Below are positions 197-7,055 of a DNA stretch of 7,276 bases, in pieces. Position numbers and translations under genes: made by a program. Each line of letters opens with the position of its first letter. Positions within the stretch are counted from its first letter, which is position 1. Under the pieces are notes generated by a model, which was not told the origin of the DNA, made no database searches, and saw only the letters and a program-made list of their open reading frames with translations. This DNA is from an uncultured archaeon (GTDB lineage Archaea; Asgardarchaeota; Lokiarchaeia; Sigyniarchaeales; Promethearchaeaceae), in the NCBI GenBank assembly GCA_964426185.1, contig CAYRPF010000111.1, forward strand, positions 1-7,276, given 5' to 3'.

Positions 197-1000
197 CTAG
201 CATACAGGTGGAACATTTACCGTATTCAACAACAATAGCTGATCTATGAATAAATCATATTCGCTTTTTTCATCCAAATCTAACATTTTAGCCTTTTCAA
301 CCTCATCATCACCCATAACGGCTAAAATCTTGGCTTCTGTCAATAACTTTACGTTAGACGAACGGAGTTGAGACTTCAAATTCGGGTCATCTGTATGAAT
401 TTTGGTGGCAGAGGTAGCTAAAATCACTCGATTCGTTACTTCAGTTAAATTTAAAGCAGCTCGAATACTCTCATCTCCGTTAAACCTTATTAAAGTTCGC
501 TGATCTTTAAAAACATCCAGCTTTGAGATAGAATAGGATACACCTTTACCCAAATATTCTAATTCACCTAAAATAGAATTATTATCAATTGTATTATCTA
601 CTTCAACTGGTTTTTCCACCATTATTCCTGCACGGTAATTTTTGATTGCTTCATGTAAGGCATCGGCCGCTAAATTACTACAATGCATTTTAATTGGGGG
701 TAAACCATCCAGTTCCTCTGCAACATCCTTGCGGGTGACTTTCAATGCTTCATCTAGCTTCATCCCTTTTACCATTAAGGTTGTCATAGAGCTTGTTGCA
801 ACTGCACTTCCGCAACCAAATGTTTGGAATTTAATATCTTGAATGACATCATCTTCTACTTTGATGTACATTTCCATGATATCACCGCATGTGGGGTTTC
901 CCACCCGTCCCATAGCCACGTTTTCTCCAGTAAGCGTTCCCACATTACGGGGATTACGAAAATGTTCCAATACTTTTTCAGAATATTTTGTTGATTTCAT
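197..1000 (-). CDS. iscU: IscU/NifU-N-type Fe-S scaffold (aa ~1-125) fused to a degenerate thioredoxin-reductase-like NAD(P)H-binding domain (aa ~143-257)
   Basis: N-terminus YSEKVLEHFRNPRNVG; cluster ligands GNPTC38GD40, FGC63GSA and LPPIKMH106C107. The C-terminal half (ILGELEYLGKGVSYS...FKDQRTLIRFNGDESIRAALNLTEVTNRVIL...MGDDEVEKAKMLDLDEKSEYDLFIDQLLL) follows the pattern of the TrxB NADPH domain. A GGTGA RBS lies within the iscS 3' end. Confidence 0.93.
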   Translation of the reverse strand: MKSTKYSEKVLEHFRNPRNVGTLTGENVAMGRVGNPTCGDIMEMYIKVEDDVIQDIKFQTFGCGSAVATSSMTTLMVKGMKLDEALKVTRKDVAEELDGLPPIKMHCSNLAADALHEAIKNYRAGIMVEKPVEVDNTIDNNSILGELEYLGKGVSYSISKLDVFKDQRTLIRFNGDESIRAALNLTEVTNRVILATSATKIHTDDPNLKSQLRSSNVKLLTEAKILAVMGDDEVEKAKMLDLDEKSEYDLFIDQLLLLNTVNVPPVC

Positions 1001-1002
1001 TT

Positions 1003-2196
1003 TTATGTCACCTTTATTTCAGAATAGAGGGGAGATAACTCCCGCAAGCGTTTTACAATCTGTGGAGTCAATTCTACTGCTTTATCAATATGCTCCATAG
1101 TAGTATAACGCCCAGTAGTAAATTCTAATGACCCATGTGCTTCTTCATGCAGCAATCCAGTAGAAATAAGAGTATGCGAAGGTTCCAGTGTTTTAGAGCT
1201 GCAAGCCGATCCTGTAGAAACGGCCATGTTCTGTTCTTTAAACATCAATAGTATGGATTCTCCTTCGATTCCATCAAATCGGAAATGGGTATTATTTGGC
1301 AAACGGTCGGTCGGATGTCCGTTCAAATAGCTGTGGGGAACTTCCGCTAAAATTTCTTTTTGAAGTTTATGTTGATATTGTCGATACCTAGATACTTCTT
1401 CAGCTTGTTTTTCTTGAAGGATTCGGGTGGCTTCTGCCATGCCTACAATTCCTGCAACATTTTCCGTTCCAGATCTTATCCCTTTTTCTTGACCCCCCCC
1501 AATAATAATAGGCGAGACTCGAAAACCCTTTTGAATAAACAATGCTCCCACTCCTTTTGGTCCATAAAAATCATTGCTACTTAGAGACATGATATTGATA
1601 TGATGGTCTTTTGGATGGAGATCTAATTGACCTTGAGCGGCCACCGCATCTGAATGGAGAGCAATTCCATTTTCAGCAGCGATTTCTCCCACTTCATCAA
1701 TGGGTTGAATTGTTCCAATTTCATTGTTAGCATATTGGACTGATATGAGAATTGTTTTATCAGTAATGCGTTTACGAAGTTTTTCCACCCGAATTCGACC
1801 GTATTGGTCAACAGGAACTTTAGAAACTACGAAGCCGTTTTTTTCCAAGTATTTTACCAAGTTATGTTGTGAGATATGTTCAACTTCCGATATTATAATA
1901 TGGTTTCCCTTACGACGATTACGAATTGCATATCCTAACAGCGCGAGATTAACCGATTCGGTGGCTCCTGAAGTGAAAATGATTTCTTCTGGCAAAATTT
2001 TCAGAAAAGAAGCAATTTGTTCTCGCGCTTTGGTGAGTGCATCTTCTGCTACATCTCCGATGGTGTGTAGAGAGGAAGGATTTCCATATAATTGATCAAA
2101 AAATGGTAACATTCGCTTGACTACGCGCTCATCAACAGGTTTACTTGCTTGATAATCCAAATTTATTACGGGTTTTTTATTTTGAGTTTGTGACAT
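1003..2196 (-). CDS. iscS: IscS/NifS-family (group I) cysteine desulfurase homolog with the PLP Lys replaced by Asp (Archaeoglobus-type, probably desulfurase-inactive)
   Basis: Motifs LDYQASKP, YGNPSSLH, IIFTSGATES, EVEH, ANNEIGTIQP, GGGQEKGIRSGTEN and STGSAC332SS. The canonical SxHK motif reads SSN208D209FYGPKG. GGGAG RBS upstream. Confidence 0.95.
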   Translation of the reverse strand: MSQTQNKKPVINLDYQASKPVDERVVKRMLPFFDQLYGNPSSLHTIGDVAEDALTKAREQIASFLKILPEEIIFTSGATESVNLALLGYAIRNRRKGNHIIISEVEHISQHNLVKYLEKNGFVVSKVPVDQYGRIRVEKLRKRITDKTILISVQYANNEIGTIQPIDEVGEIAAENGIALHSDAVAAQGQLDLHPKDHHINIMSLSSNDFYGPKGVGALFIQKGFRVSPIIIGGGQEKGIRSGTENVAGIVGMAEATRILQEKQAEEVSRYRQYQHKLQKEILAEVPHSYLNGHPTDRLPNNTHFRFDGIEGESILLMFKEQNMAVSTGSACSSKTLEPSHTLISTGLLHEEAHGSLEFTTGRYTTMEHIDKAVELTPQIVKRLRELSPLYSEIKVT

Positions 2197-2253
2197 TTTT
2201 TTACTCCCATTAATTTTTTGTGTGAAATTGTTTTACTAAATAATTTTCTGGTG

Positions 2254-2631
2254 TTAAAACCACATGGTTCCTTTTGCATCAAAAACTAAATCGTTTAATG
2301 TAGCAGCACCTACAATCTGTAAAAATGAAGGTAGTTTCACAGAATTCCATCCGAGCATCTGTTTAGAGGCTTCACATACATAAATGGGAATGCCCATATC
2401 ATGTGTTTTCTTTAAGAGTTCAAAAAGTGAGGGAAATGAACCGATTTTTATTTTTTCGGCTTGTTCCTTCGGTAAAACGCGTAAGCTTTGCCCGAGAAAA
2501 TACACTTTTGCCTCAATATCCATTGCTTTTGCGGATTGGGCAAGAATTAAAGGGGAATACTGCCGTTCAGGGTCATCGCTGGTTTGTACATACAGTAGAT
2601 ATTCCTTTTCTTTTTTTTCCGTTTCTGTCAT
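2254..2631 (-). CDS. DsrE/DsrF-like family sulfur carrier protein
   Basis: 125 aa with a DsrE-like layout (LYVQTSDDPER...AQSAKAMDIEAKVYFLGQS...GIPIYVC86EAS...IVGAATL). The single Cys is at the conserved DsrE position. AGGAG RBS upstream; lies between tusA and iscS. Confidence 0.85.
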   Translation of the reverse strand: MTETEKKEKEYLLYVQTSDDPERQYSPLILAQSAKAMDIEAKVYFLGQSLRVLPKEQAEKIKIGSFPSLFELLKKTHDMGIPIYVCEASKQMLGWNSVKLPSFLQIVGAATLNDLVFDAKGTMWF

Positions 2632-2658
2632 GGTTATTTGAGCTCCTGAATTTATCGA

Positions 2659-2898
2659 TTATTTTTTTTGAATCAAAAATCGAAATTCACCGTTTTCTTC
2701 GCTGACTTCTATCAAGATATTTCCCGTTCTTTTACAAAATCGGGTTAAATCCTCCTTTGAGGCTGGATCATCGGCTAGTACCTCTAAGACATCGCCGCTC
2801 TGAAGTTCATCCATCTTGGAGCGGGTTTGAAATAATGGTTCAGGGCAGAACACCCCGATGCAATCTAAGGTTTCTTTGGGTGAATCTGAATTTTTCAT
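2659..2898 (-). CDS. tusA: TusA/SirA-family sulfurtransferase (sulfur carrier)
   Basis: LDCIGVFCPEP contains the CPxP persulfide motif; also GDVLEVLADDPASKEDL and C-terminal FRFLIQK. The ATG at 2898 (79 aa) is preferred over the TTG at 2907 in the ORF track. Confidence 0.92.
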   Translation of the reverse strand: MKNSDSPKETLDCIGVFCPEPLFQTRSKMDELQSGDVLEVLADDPASKEDLTRFCKRTGNILIEVSEENGEFRFLIQKK

Positions 2899-3014
2899 CC
2901 TTATCAATAATTAGATAGTGTGATTAATTTTATTTTAGCCGCTTTTATGAGATAAAGATTTAAGGATAATTGGTTATTTTAGAAACAAAAATTTGCAACT
3001 TCTCAAATATTGGT

Positions 3015-3028
3015 GGAAAATTTATTGA
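3015..3028 (+). promoter_or_regulatory. Putative archaeal BRE/TATA promoter for the HAD gene
   Basis: GGAAAA-TTTATTGA: a purine-rich BRE-like run followed by a TATA-like box about 30 bp upstream of the ATG at 3058. Confidence 0.45.
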
Positions 3029-3057
3029 TTATCAAGTATTGTGCTAAATGATAACTG

Positions 3058-3888
3058 ATGGGTAATATTAAGTGCATTTCATTTGATTTATGGGAGACAA
3101 TAATCCAAGATCATTTCCAATTTGATGCCAGAATAGCTATCTTAGATGAATTTTTGAATACTAAAGGCTTGAAAATTCCTAAGAAGACTCTTAAAAACCG
3201 TTATATGGAAAAAGCAGGCGGATATGCAGAATTTATTACTCAAGAGAGCGATTATCGGCATGTAAGTTACCAGACACGCTTAAGAAAATTCTTCAATTCA
3301 TTTGATCTAGATGTTTCCGAAGAGGAGATGGAATATATTAGTTCCCAGTTTAATCAAGTTTTTTTAGATGACCCTCCCCAGTTTTACTCGGATATAGTAA
3401 AAATTTTACCCAAATTATCTGAAAGTTATCAAATTATACTCATAAGCGATACAGGATTCATTTATGGGAATACCATGCGGGAATTACTTAAAAGAAATAA
3501 CCTTCTCAAGCATTTCTCTCACTGCTACTTTTCCGATGAAACTGGTCATTACAAACCTCATCCCAAAGCTTTCAAACTAGCTGAGAAACAAACGGGATTT
3601 TCCCCGTATGAAATGGTTCATATTGGGGATCGCATTGATACAGATGTGGTGGGGGCTAATAGAAATGGCTGGTGGAGTGGACTAATAGTCAATCACGATG
3701 AAAACAGATGGGATCTGTTCCAAGATAGCCAAAAAAATCATAAATTGAACAATCTCAAACTTACTGGTCAAGAAGCAGCAGAAATTGTGAAAAATAGGGA
3801 AAAAAAGCGAGAACTAGAGAAGATTCCCGATTTTGTTTTAAAGAAATGGGAAGAAATTTGGGATGAATTAAAAAAAATAAATAGTTGA
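3058..3888 (+). CDS. HAD-superfamily hydrolase, subfamily IA-like; substrate unknown
   Basis: Motif I ISFDLWET, motif II ISDTG, motif III YKPHP, motif IV HIGDRIDTDVVGA, helical cap between motifs I and II, C-terminal PDFVL strand. Confidence 0.9.
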   Translation: MGNIKCISFDLWETIIQDHFQFDARIAILDEFLNTKGLKIPKKTLKNRYMEKAGGYAEFITQESDYRHVSYQTRLRKFFNSFDLDVSEEEMEYISSQFNQVFLDDPPQFYSDIVKILPKLSESYQIILISDTGFIYGNTMRELLKRNNLLKHFSHCYFSDETGHYKPHPKAFKLAEKQTGFSPYEMVHIGDRIDTDVVGANRNGWWSGLIVNHDENRWDLFQDSQKNHKLNNLKLTGQEAAEIVKNREKKRELEKIPDFVLKKWEEIWDELKKINS

Positions 3889-3897
3889 AATCCTAAT

Positions 3898-6267
3898 TCA
3901 AAAATTCTGATGTTCGGTGCGTCTGATTATTTCTTCTTGCAGTTTCTGTCCTAAATTAATAAAGTAATCACTGTAACCCGCCACCCTTACTATTAAATTG
4001 CGATATTGCTCAGGATTTTTCTGAGCTGCCCTTAGAGTAGCTGCATCGACCACGTTGAACTGGATATGATGTCCATCCATTTTAAAATACGACCGAATTA
4101 AGTGAAGCACCTTTATAAGACCTGACTCTTCTTGCAGCAAAGATGGATTAAACTTCTGATTCAGCAAGGTTCCACCAGTTCTTAAATGGTCGAGTTTAGC
4201 TGCTGATTTGAGAACGGCGGTTGGTCCTTTTATATCAGCACCTTGTACCGGTGAAATTCCCTCTGATAATGGCATCATGGCTTCTCTACCATCCGGTGTG
4301 GCACCGATTACAGAACCAAAATAAACATGAACAGTAGTTGGGAGCAAATTTATGCGATAATGGCCTCCTTTCGAGTTAGGGCGGCCGTCTACTAAATCAA
4401 AAAGGACATCAAACACTTCTTGTGCAAATCTATCGGCATAATCGTCATCATTACCATATTTTGGAGTGTCATTGATCAATTTATGCCGAAAATCGTGATA
4501 TCCTTCAAAGTTTTTATCCAATATATTTACTAATTCGTTCAAGGTCAGTGATTTTTCATCAAAAACATGTTTTTTTATTGCGGCTAACGAATCGGAGATA
4601 GATCCCATCCCAACCATTTGAATATAATTACTGTTATAGCGCGCCCCTCCGGCGTTATAATCCTTTCCCTTTTTAATACAATCTTCTATAATAATAGATA
4701 AGAAAACCGCCGGTAGTTCTCTGGCCCATAACTGTTCAATAATTTGATTTCCCTTTATCTTGATATCAATAAAATATGCTAATTGTTTCTTAAAAGCCTC
4801 GAAGAATGCTTCATAATTTTCAAACGTATCATTTTCTCCAGTTCTCGGACCAATTTGTTTTTGGGTGCGGGAATCAAATCCATTATGCAATGTAATTTCT
4901 AAAACTTTTACAATATTGAAATATCCGGTTAGGATATAAGCTTCTTTTCCAAAAGCGCCCACTTCCACACATCCACTGGCTCCAGAAAGGCGGGCTTCAA
5001 CCAAATCTTTACCTTGTCTTAAAAGTTCCTGGATAATAGCGTCACAATTAAATATAGAGGGTTGGCCGAAACCCGTTTTTATGATATCTAAAGCGCGCAT
5101 TAAGAGGCGATCGGGCGTTTTTTTGCTGATTTGAACATTGGAACTGGGTTGTAATATACGCATTTGCTGAATGGTGTCGAGTATCATATAAGATAGTGGA
5201 TTAGTGCCATCTGACCCATCCGCCTTCAATCCACCGATGTTGATATTGCAAAAATCAGTATATGTATTGCTTTCTTCGGCTGTAACTCCGACTTTTGGCG
5301 GTGCTGGCTGGTTGTTAAATTTGATCCAAAAAGCTTGAAGCAATTCTCTAGCGAATTCTTCATCCCATTTCCCCTCTGCAAGTTCTTTTTGATAGAAGGG
5401 AAAAAGATTCTGATCCAATCGACCTGGATTAAAGGAATCCCAAGTATTTAATTCAGTTATTACTCCCAAATGGATAAACCAATAATGCTGAAGCGCTTCC
5501 CAGAAATTTCGTGGAGTATGTGCCGGAACCCAATCACAAATCTCCGCAATTTGAAGCAATTCTCGCTTTCTCTGCGGATCCAATGCAGAATTTTCATTTG
5601 CCATTGTTCTGGCTAGTTCTGCATAACGATGGGCAAAAGCGATAATAGCTTCGGCGGCAATATTCATAGCCCTTAATTGATCCCGTTTCATTAATGCCTC
5701 CGGATCGTTTAAGAAATCGAGTTTAGAGATGGATTGCTGAATTTCCTTGATGAAATCTAGCATTCCTTTTTGAAAGACTTGCTTACCCGCTACAGTATGC
5801 CCGGGAGCGCGTTGTTCCATGAATTCAGTAAACACACCTGCTTTATAGGCAGCAATCCATTCTTGATCCATTTCTGAAAAGATTTTGTCTCTGATAGATT
5901 TTCCTTTCCAAAATGGAAGAATCACTGATTGAGTGAGCTTTTTAGTCTCCTCTGTTACCTTAAATGATATTTTTGGGCGATTATGTAAAATATCCAGATC
6001 CTTCAATGTATGACAGCATATTTCGGGATAAGTAGGCGTTGCCAGGGGCGCCGGTCCCCTTTCTCCAACGATTAATTCCCCCTCATTAATGCAGATTTCC
6101 TTATTTTCAAGAATATGACGAAATGCCAAAGCTCGCATTATGGGCGTTGGATATTGTTGATTTTCATGATTTTGATAGAATTCGGTAATTAGCTTTGCCC
6201 GTTCTATTGAAAGTTCCGGTTGGGTGCTCACACTTTGTTCTCTTAAGCGGTGTATACGTTCGTTCAT
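3898..6267 (-). CDS. hypD: Glycyl radical enzyme, trans-4-hydroxy-L-proline dehydratase
   Basis: 789 aa. Glycyl loop RVAG764YS and Cys loop SGC433VE435. HypD-type segments PTYPEICCH, FTEFMEQRAPGH157TV, W276D277, FNNQPAPPKVG, ES333NTYTD338F339, LTGY449 and LPT644T match the Clostridioides difficile HypD active-site set as recalled (H160, D278, S334, D339, F340, C434, E436, Y450, T645, G765). Confidence 0.9.
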   Translation of the reverse strand: MNERIHRLREQSVSTQPELSIERAKLITEFYQNHENQQYPTPIMRALAFRHILENKEICINEGELIVGERGPAPLATPTYPEICCHTLKDLDILHNRPKISFKVTEETKKLTQSVILPFWKGKSIRDKIFSEMDQEWIAAYKAGVFTEFMEQRAPGHTVAGKQVFQKGMLDFIKEIQQSISKLDFLNDPEALMKRDQLRAMNIAAEAIIAFAHRYAELARTMANENSALDPQRKRELLQIAEICDWVPAHTPRNFWEALQHYWFIHLGVITELNTWDSFNPGRLDQNLFPFYQKELAEGKWDEEFARELLQAFWIKFNNQPAPPKVGVTAEESNTYTDFCNINIGGLKADGSDGTNPLSYMILDTIQQMRILQPSSNVQISKKTPDRLLMRALDIIKTGFGQPSIFNCDAIIQELLRQGKDLVEARLSGASGCVEVGAFGKEAYILTGYFNIVKVLEITLHNGFDSRTQKQIGPRTGENDTFENYEAFFEAFKKQLAYFIDIKIKGNQIIEQLWARELPAVFLSIIIEDCIKKGKDYNAGGARYNSNYIQMVGMGSISDSLAAIKKHVFDEKSLTLNELVNILDKNFEGYHDFRHKLINDTPKYGNDDDYADRFAQEVFDVLFDLVDGRPNSKGGHYRINLLPTTVHVYFGSVIGATPDGREAMMPLSEGISPVQGADIKGPTAVLKSAAKLDHLRTGGTLLNQKFNPSLLQEESGLIKVLHLIRSYFKMDGHHIQFNVVDAATLRAAQKNPEQYRNLIVRVAGYSDYFINLGQKLQEEIIRRTEHQNF

Positions 6268-6269
6268 TT

Positions 6270-7055
6270 TTACCCTCCAATTTTACAGTTGGGAAAGGTT
6301 TTTAGAAAAAAATTGCGAATTTCTTGCATGCGTTCCGAAGTCGGTGGCTTTAAATTGGTTAATCGATATTCACATCCCAATTGTTTATATTTTCGAATTC
6401 CAAATGTATTATATGAAAGAAGACTGATATCTCCAGTGAAATGGACTTGTTTCAAGTAATTTTTGATAGAAACCAGATTTGCTTCCGAATCTGTTATACT
6501 AGGTATAATCGGGATGCGGATATGTACATTTTGGTGATTTTCTATAAGTCGAATTAAATTGTTTAAAATCTCATGGTTATCTACTCCTGTATATTTTTTA
6601 TGGCTTTCATTATCAATTAACTTTAGATCATACAAGAATAGATCAATGTTTGACAGCATAGGCTCTAAAATTTCCCAAGAAACATAACCAGACGTGTCAA
6701 CAACAGTATGCAGCCCTTGTTTTTTACATTCATCCAGAAGTTTGGCCAGATATTTTGGCTGCATAAAAGGTTCTCCGCCCGAAAATGTTACACCACCGTC
6801 TGATTCATCGTAAAAAATTCTATCCTTCAAAATTTCATTCATAACTTCTGCTACATTCATGGTTTTTCCGATTATTTCTTGAAAATTGGGACCAGTTAGA
6901 TATTTCTGAGGTTCTAATTGCTGACTTTCTGGATTATGGCACCACCAGCATGATAATGGGCATCCCTTCAAGAAGATTGTGGTCCGTATACCTGGACCAT
7001 CGTGAATTGCGAATTTTTTAATGTCAAAAACAATACCACTAAGTTGATTGCCCAT
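6270..7055 (-). CDS. Glycyl-radical enzyme activating enzyme (radical SAM, PflA family), cognate HypD activase, short form
   Basis: HDGPGIRTTIFLKGC32PLSC36WWC39HNPES (CX3CX2C), GGVTFSGGEP, VDTSG, LYDLKL, HKKYTG and RIPIIP motifs; stop lies 2 bp before the hypD start. Confidence 0.95.
   Translation of the reverse strand: MGNQLSGIVFDIKKFAIHDGPGIRTTIFLKGCPLSCWWCHNPESQQLEPQKYLTGPNFQEIIGKTMNVAEVMNEILKDRIFYDESDGGVTFSGGEPFMQPKYLAKLLDECKKQGLHTVVDTSGYVSWEILEPMLSNIDLFLYDLKLIDNESHKKYTGVDNHEILNNLIRLIENHQNVHIRIPIIPSITDSEANLVSIKNYLKQVHFTGDISLLSYNTFGIRKYKQLGCEYRLTNLKPPTSERMQEIRNFFLKTFPNCKIGG

Follow-up and report, generated by a model that had tools for sequence, protein, structure and literature searches.

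A lysine-less IscS and an IscU scaffold are encoded together with the sulfur carrier TusA, and often with DsrE, in an operon conserved across archaea and bacteria

How can an iron-sulfur (Fe-S) scaffold obtain sulfur when the IscS encoded beside it lacks the Schiff-base lysine? This question is raised by a contig of an uncultured archaeon of the Promethearchaeaceae (Asgardarchaeota; Lokiarchaeia; GenBank assembly GCA_964426185.1, contig CAYRPF010000111.1), which was analyzed over its entire length of 7,276 bp and is here called the window; the genome comprises 3.26 Mb and is 92% complete. Positions 197-2898 carry four co-oriented minus-strand open reading frames (ORFs), tusA, a dsrE-like gene, an iscS-like gene, and an iscU fusion gene, with intergenic gaps of 27, 57, and 2 nt. 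We found that this segment represents an operon, tusA-(dsrE)-iscS-iscU, that is widely conserved and whose IscS is of the Lys-less type. The arrangement had been predicted from the DNA letters alone and was confirmed by the ORFs and their Pfam and NCBIfam families; all cysteines named in that original prediction are present (TusA C21 in the CPEP motif, DsrE C86, IscS C332, and IscU C38, C63, C107, and C267). The features of the operon are as follows.

2659..2898, minus strand: tusA, sulfur-carrier protein, ATG start, 79 amino acids (aa), or 82 aa if the in-frame TTG at 2907 is used
2254..2631, minus strand: dsrE-like gene, 125 aa, single-gene DsrE-family sulfur carrier with Cys86 in VCEASKQMLGW
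1003..2196, minus strand: Lys-less iscS, 397 aa, IscS/MisS paralogue of the Archaeoglobus fulgidus IscS2 type with Asp209 (SSND), Ala186, and loop Cys332
197..1000, minus strand: iscU fusion gene, 267 aa, IscU plus a thioredoxin reductase (TrxR)-like C-terminal domain
620..1000, minus strand: IscU scaffold domain, residues 1-127, with the cluster ligands C38, C63, and C107 and His106
200..580, minus strand: IscU C-terminal domain, residues ~141-260 plus a disordered tail, TrxR NADPH-binding fold
2899..3057, no strand: AT-rich intergenic region from which tusA and a gene for a haloacid dehalogenase (HAD)-family hydrolase diverge, presumed operon promoter from its position only

The iscS-like gene encodes a protein with full-length homology to class V, fold-type I pyridoxal 5′-phosphate (PLP) enzymes (Pfam Aminotran_5, 6.6e-70, residues 11-372). 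The predicted lack of the Schiff-base lysine was verified by alignment with a Lys-bearing paralogue of the same genome and with the best match among solved structures, PDB 4EB5_A (4.8e-123, residues 13-392). The window protein reads SSNDFYGPKG where its paralogue reads SGHKIYGPKG; with SSND at residues 206-209, His is replaced by N208 and Lys by D209, and the Gln assigned to PLP O3′ is replaced by A186. The motif SSND is shared with 4EB5_A, which belongs to the matched A. fulgidus IscS2 structures (4EB5, 4EB7, and 4HVK, with 4R5F representing a D199K variant). All 120 best database homologues of the window protein contained SSND and the loop cysteine, and the latter, C332 in the motif TGSACSS, was also invariant in an alignment of 20 sequences. 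In a maximum-likelihood tree of 122 IscS proteins, the 99 Lys-less members including that of the window formed a single clade, with a value of 99 in the SH-like approximate likelihood ratio test (SH-aLRT), and this clade was nested among archaeal Lys-bearing IscS; a quick method was used for the tree, and midpoint rooting served for drawing only. These comparisons identify the window IscS as orthologous to A. fulgidus IscS2.

An IscS with Asp in place of Lys is therefore not new, as it is already known from Archaeoglobus. The A. fulgidus protein contains Asp199 and pyridoxamine 5′-phosphate, is devoid of desulfurase activity, and may serve solely as a scaffold that contributes one Cys ligand to the [2Fe-2S] cluster (PMC8918507). 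The notion of IscS as an adaptor or ligand donor, which the original prediction had put forward, was thus already proposed for A. fulgidus IscS2 and represents prior knowledge. In crystals, the A. fulgidus IscS-IscU pair forms a [2Fe-2S] cluster (PMC13066941, PMC8918507). How this cluster arises without desulfurase activity was described as unsettled, sulfide being a hypothetical source (PMC8918507).

We analyzed the genes that accompany the Lys-less iscS in other genomes. A scan with one genome per species yielded at least 573 relatives, the best 80 of which were analyzed as loci; with the window and three metagenomic relatives, a set of 84 loci was obtained. It covers Asgard archaea, Halobacteriota, Methanobacteriota, Thermoplasmata, Syntrophia/Deltaproteobacteria, several classes of Actinomycetota, WOR-3, Aminicenantes, Zixibacteria, and Stahlbacteria. 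The IscS lysine was absent in 84 of 84 loci (80 with SSND, 3 with SAND, and 1 with SSNA). The tusA gene was located directly upstream in 82 of them, and the remaining two were cut by contig ends. A dsrE gene was present between tusA and iscS in 69 loci and missing in 15. Of the two carrier genes in the original prediction, tusA is a near-constant partner, whereas dsrE is optional. The nearest locus as judged by IscS was that of Candidatus Harpocratesius repetitus (82% IscS identity). In the genome G342, the Lys-less IscS had two close matches at separate positions (locus L115, with the motif SSND, and C19:19543-20688), which share 51% and 50% identity with the window protein, so that the module may be duplicated there.

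Eighty other loci of many phyla have these genes in the same order, so that the arrangement is far beyond chance. The possibility that tusA and dsrE lie beside the Lys-less iscS and iscU as incidental neighbors without functional coupling is highly improbable to us: the order is kept with gaps of 0-60 bp or with overlaps across about ten phyla of two domains, even though dsrE is dispensable in 15 of 84 loci. A further argument comes from the sister type of the enzyme. The original prediction had suggested a comparison of tusA/dsrE neighborhoods between Lys-less and Lys-containing IscS, and this comparison supported the link. The 30 best IscS loci from 100 genomes of a single phylum, the one to which locus L078 belongs, included 14 Lys-less loci, 12 of them with an adjacent tusA, and 15 Lys-bearing iscS-iscU loci, none of which had one; the corresponding numbers for dsrE were 10 of 14 and 0 of 15. 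Fisher's exact test gave p values of 1.8e-6 for tusA and 5e-5 for dsrE, which overstate independence because the sampled genomes of one phylum are related, a point that weakens the case for a dedicated carrier.

The linkage extends to the family of the crystallized proteins. In the Archaeoglobaceae, tusA was found directly upstream in 13 of 13 Lys-less loci, often with a 4-nt overlap with iscS; six of these loci contained dsrE, and their IscU proteins were short (147-162 aa). The IscS of one locus (L151) matched 4EB5_A over its full length with 776.9 bits, indicating that the locus comes from A. fulgidus itself or from a near-identical strain. The genes are arranged as tusA 898-1131, dsrE 1132-1491, iscS 1501-2649, and iscU 2654-3115. 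Literature searches that combined TusA/DsrE with IscS/IscU/NifU/MIS (the latter standing for the minimal iron-sulfur system) found no description of the operon or of the tusA link, with several key subscription papers outside reach, and a search for the locus tags AF0563-AF0565 returned nothing relevant; the A. fulgidus IscS2-IscU pair corresponds to AF0564/AF0565. Within the searchable literature, the link of tusA to the Lys-less IscS is the part that we did not find described before.

Both putative carriers could be assigned to their families, and the TusA of the module showed a peculiarity. It matched Pfam TusA (PF01206) with 7.6e-26 (90.2 bits versus a cut-off of 28.6) and, among PDB entries, E. 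coli TusA best (1DCJ/3LVJ_C, 1e-12), whereas its score against the NCBIfam TusA equivalog NF001423 was 65.9 bits and thus below the cut-off of 78. The cysteine of the CPEP motif, C21, was invariant in 75 module-linked TusA proteins. A second cysteine, C16, within the motif DCxGxxCPxP (window 2836-2853, corresponding to residues 16-21) was present in 93% of these 75 proteins and in 13 of 13 Archaeoglobaceae; neither E. coli-like TusA nor the TusA proteins encoded next to the Lys-bearing paralogue contain it. One might speculate that such a dithiol TusA could release sulfide from its own persulfide. The DsrE-like protein matched Pfam DsrE (PF02635) with 1.2e-11 (45.3 bits versus a cut-off of 22.7) and DrsE_2 with 5e-10; the best PDB match was 3MC3, a DsrE/DsrF-like protein (1.6e-11), and the score against NCBIfam DsrE2 was only 17.5 bits. 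C86 was invariant in 67 homologues. The operon contains one dsrE-like gene and not the row of three paralogous subunit genes that defines DsrEFH/TusBCD.

Where could the sulfur come from? The original prediction had called the system desulfurase-independent. For the organism of the window this is not supported, as its genome encodes two Lys-bearing IscS/NifS paralogues, C37:30-1232 (SAHK) and C110:3690-4877 (SGHK), which could load TusA from cysteine; the assumption that the organism lacks a desulfurase was accordingly rejected. A SufB-like gene is present as well, and the TusA family has five members in this genome. The relay might run from TusA to the Lys-less IscS and IscU, as in the explanation that we favor below, but with cysteine as the sulfur source: a canonical Lys-bearing desulfurase would persulfidate TusA, and the sulfur would be shuttled, via DsrE, to the Lys-less IscS and IscU in a division of labor. 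In agreement with this possibility, each of five other module-bearing genomes from different phyla contained at least one Lys-bearing Aminotran_5 relative, and transfer from IscS to TusA is established in E. coli (PMC2854127).

This cysteine-fed relay is confronted with two observations. First, separate tusA and dsrEFH-like genes accompany the Lys-bearing paralogue on C110. This paralogue lies in a second sulfur cluster (C110:388-7326, loci L002 and L010) with two tusA, three dsrE/F/H-like genes, a gene for a MoeB/ThiF-like E1 protein, and a 162-aa IscU/SufU-like gene whose PF01592 match contains one in-frame TGA; this cluster looks like a thiolation relay. Second, no Lys-bearing IscS, NifS, or SufS was found in five module-bearing genomes of Archaeoglobaceae (G352, G370, G378, G330, and G421; loci L158-L187), of which three consist of a single contig. 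In these genomes the Lys-less IscS was the only strong Aminotran_5 member, the next matches being an AGXT-like aminotransferase and SepCysS. A cysteine-fed relay therefore cannot be the general mechanism, and we consider it unlikely. Since the module occurs both with and without canonical desulfurases, the canonical enzyme cannot be the general sulfur source, but it may contribute sulfur in the organism of the window. The five Archaeoglobaceae genomes speak in favor of a non-cysteine source.

We therefore favor, as a probable though by no means secured explanation, that the module is a MIS-type scaffold of the Archaeoglobus kind with dedicated carriers, in which TusA, with DsrE as an optional addition, delivers sulfane sulfur to C332 of the Lys-less IscS and to IscU. 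We infer each transfer step and the direction of flow as follows. The Lys-less IscS would be a cysteine-desulfurase look-alike unable to form the PLP-lysine aldimine. It would bind IscU as an (IscS-IscU)2 complex in which the loop cysteine, here C332, would serve as the fourth ligand of the nascent [2Fe-2S] cluster. Such a ligand-donating pair would represent a MIS-type scaffold that cannot itself use the sulfur of free cysteine. Most likely, TusA would bring sulfane sulfur in the form of a persulfide to C332 and to the cysteines of IscU, and DsrE, where present, would act as a second carrier upstream of TusA. The sulfur would thus flow in the reverse of the E. coli direction from IscS to TusA. 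In Archaeoglobaceae without a Lys-bearing desulfurase, the source would have to be non-cysteine sulfur, for example, sulfide-derived polysulfide or thiosulfate, and in the Asgard genome of the window it could also be one of the two canonical IscS/NifS paralogues.

Several points weigh against a TusA-fed scaffold. We know of no precedent for a reverse sulfur flow from TusA to IscS. E. coli TusA is an acceptor of sulfur from IscS and a competitor of IscU (PMC2854127). The absence of dsrE in 15 of 84 loci means that this gene is not essential to the module. The two Lys-bearing paralogues and the SufB-like gene of the window genome imply that the module is neither the only Fe-S route there nor necessarily cysteine-independent. 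Finally, as the Lys-bearing paralogue on C110 is flanked by tusA, this genome has the tusA-iscS adjacency also outside the Lys-less type.

The scaffold protein itself was well defined in its N-terminal part. This domain matched Pfam NifU_N (6.7e-48, residues 5-124) and TIGR03419 NifU_clost (188.9 bits), and the PDB entries 7C8M (3.7e-49) and 4EB5_C (4.7e-44); in Foldseek comparisons, its root mean square deviation (rmsd) from IscU structures was 1.5-1.7 Å. C38, C63, and C107 were invariant, with conservation evaluated over 66-75 homologues. The original prediction had listed the terminal C267 among the cysteines that handle sulfur or clusters. This cysteine was present in the nearest Loki relatives only, and a role as a functional residue was rejected because it is not conserved.

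The fusion to a TrxR-like domain, also part of the original prediction, was supported with respect to the fold but not with respect to a complete reductase. Residues 141-254 of IscU matched the NCBIfam thioredoxin reductase family with 5.7e-11, covering only positions 115-229 of the TRX_reduct profile. The AlphaFold2 model of the fusion protein showed two confident domains connected by a disordered linker, with a mean predicted local distance difference test (pLDDT) score of 86.9 and values below 50 for the linker (131-140) and the tail (261-267). With Foldseek, the C-terminal domain was matched to the TrxR-B3 structure 3F8P (2.9e-11, rmsd of 1.5 Å over 120 columns) and also to 2ZBW and AhpF 1FL2; the sequence match to 2ZBW was 1e-6. 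A profile search of this domain against 1.84 billion representatives returned the fusions first, followed by TrxRs of about 300 aa from an E value of ~1e-17. The domain lacks the flavin adenine dinucleotide (FAD) domain, the CxxC motif (SISK instead of CATC), and the HRR motif, its glycine loop is degenerate (FNGDES instead of GGGDSA), and it contains no conserved cysteine. With these changes, it cannot function alone as a reductase. As modeled, the C-terminal domain is a TrxR NADPH domain that has lost its catalytic features and is attached by a flexible linker; its function is probably docking or structural rather than reductive.

The additional domain was found in 77 of the 84 loci; the other seven are explained by contig ends, by frameshifts, or, in L039, by the absence of IscU. 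A protein search with the C-terminal domain had returned only 5 proteins and suggested a rare fusion. This view was rejected, since the locus-based searches detected the domain in 77 of 84 loci and the small number thus reflects a sensitivity limit of the word index. In three related genomes of the phylum Halobacteriota, in which IscU is short, a full-length TrxR of 304 aa is encoded directly upstream of tusA (L155:2706-3617, L156:3452-4363, and L157:3451-4314), with intact GxGxxG, CATC, and GDGNSA motifs. Judged by these motifs, the TrxR domain that is fused to IscU elsewhere occurs here as a separate, apparently active gene, which hints, on the basis of these three related genomes only, that a TrxR-type partner was part of the history of the system.

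A more far-reaching version of the TusA-fed scaffold would take these features together. TusA, assisted by DsrE, might be the missing point at which sulfur enters an ancient Fe-S machine that does not depend on cysteine. Sulfane sulfur made from environmental sulfide, polysulfide, or thiosulfate would pass as a TusA persulfide to the inactive IscS at its loop cysteine and finally to IscU, with the second TusA cysteine and the TrxR-derived module providing or docking a reducing step. We offer this version tentatively and consider it less likely than not.

Twelve of 82 loci contained a gene for a CopA-type P1B heavy-metal ATPase (HMA plus YHS domains) flanking the module. In 10 of these the ATPase gene shares the strand of iscU and follows it, in several cases immediately. 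The downstream loci were L023, L037, L040, L048, L053, L076, L077, L083, L085, L093, and L094, and the upstream locus was L066; they belong to several bacterial phyla and one Helarchaeote. This neighborhood would fit a task other than general, TusA-fed Fe-S building, such as a response to reactive sulfur or soft-metal stress, cluster repair, or a supply of sulfur or clusters for enzymes of thiolation or cofactor metabolism. DsrE4-type proteins were proposed to detoxify reactive sulfur species (PMC11094781), the second conserved cysteine of the module TusA is unusual for a plain persulfide shuttle, and other Fe-S routes exist in the genome (the SufB-like gene and the Lys-bearing IscS/NifS). However, the ATPase link is absent from most bacterial loci and from archaeal loci except for that one Helarchaeote. 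Moreover, the invariance of C38, C63, and C107 in IscU and of C332 in the Lys-less IscS, as well as the assembly of a [2Fe-2S] cluster in crystals by the orthologous A. fulgidus pair (PMC13066941, PMC8918507), argue for cluster building. We therefore judge such a different task to be quite improbable.

With respect to the surroundings of the operon, a 276-aa HAD-family hydrolase is encoded at window positions 3058-3888 (plus strand), divergently from tusA; it has the same divergent position in the close relative L011 and lies ~3.7 kb upstream in L013. The adjoining region 3898-7055 (minus strand) encodes a 789-aa glycyl-radical enzyme (pyruvate formate-lyase-like, 4.7e-228, plus Gly_radical) and a 261-aa radical S-adenosylmethionine activase. 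Downstream of iscU, close relatives have only small ORFs of no assigned family.

The MIS system has been called the least-studied Fe-S system, and reviews treat cluster building of the A. fulgidus type without desulfurase activity as an open matter (PMC13066941, PMC8918507). The present data tie one or two dedicated carrier genes to exactly the Lys-less clade in two domains of life, including the genome of the crystallized proteins or of a near-identical strain, and the tusA link provides a testable idea of how Lys-less IscS-IscU systems are supplied with sulfur. The question is thereby turned into a direct experiment, namely, whether a TusA persulfide feeds the Lys-less IscS-IscU pair. If TusA and DsrE are indeed the sulfur entry, the crystallized A. 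fulgidus IscS2-IscU complex has been studied without two natural partners. The answer bears on the supply of sulfur to Fe-S clusters in early sulfide-rich life and in the strict anaerobes of today, among them the Asgard archaea related to eukaryotes.

A comparison with known systems places the module close to, but apart from, several of them. The hscB-hscA, fdx, iscA, and iscR genes of iron-sulfur cluster (ISC) operons were found neither in the window, as originally predicted, nor in the regions that flank the operon in close relatives; only 196 bp of the contig lie beyond iscU. In this respect the operon resembles the MIS system, an IscS-like and IscU-like pair encoded without HscAB, ferredoxin, IscA, and IscR, and the distance of only 2 nt between the iscS stop and the iscU start likewise corresponds to the adjacent genes of MIS. 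According to a 2026 review, MIS consists of MisS and MisU with no further components and uses a cysteine desulfurase (PMC13066941). In contrast, the MisS of the window belongs to the clade without the catalytic Lys, one or two sulfur-carrier genes (tusA and dsrE) are fixed, conserved partners, and the scaffold has an extra domain. With low-Mr TrxR (TrxB or the C-terminal half of AhpF), this domain shares the fold of the NADPH-binding domain (3F8P), but it differs by the missing FAD domain, CxxC, and HRR and by the degenerate glycine loop.

The E. coli IscS-TusA-TusBCD relay, which serves tRNA 2-thiouridine and molybdenum cofactor synthesis, is composed of the same families (IscS, TusA, and DsrE-fold proteins) and relies on the same TusA CPxP cysteine. 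There, an active IscS loads TusA; as the Lys-less IscS would be unable to make a persulfide from cysteine, the flow in the module must differ from or reverse that of E. coli. Further differences are the single dsrE gene in place of the TusBCD heterohexamer and the TusA with its second cysteine and a score below the equivalog cut-off (65.9 versus 78). The sHdr/rDsr cascades with TusA and DsrE3/DsrE2 likewise employ a small TusA and a single-domain, one-Cys DsrE-type carrier, and TusA-DsrE-type sulfur transfer was shown biochemically in sulfur oxidizers (PMC11094781). Near the window operon, in contrast, there are no shdr or dsr genes, and the partner of the carriers is an Fe-S scaffold complex.

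The closest counterpart is A. fulgidus IscS2-IscU. Archaeoglobus IscU is short (~153 aa) and without the TrxR-like C-terminal domain, the sampled Archaeoglobaceae have no Lys-bearing desulfurases whereas the organism of the window does, and the accessible papers treat a two-protein pair with no mention of tusA or dsrE (PMC13066941, PMC8918507). Both systems share the Asp in place of the PLP lysine (SSND), the retained loop cysteine, and the adjacent iscU, and the genome with the near-identical IscS (L151, 776.9 bits) also carries tusA and dsrE directly upstream.

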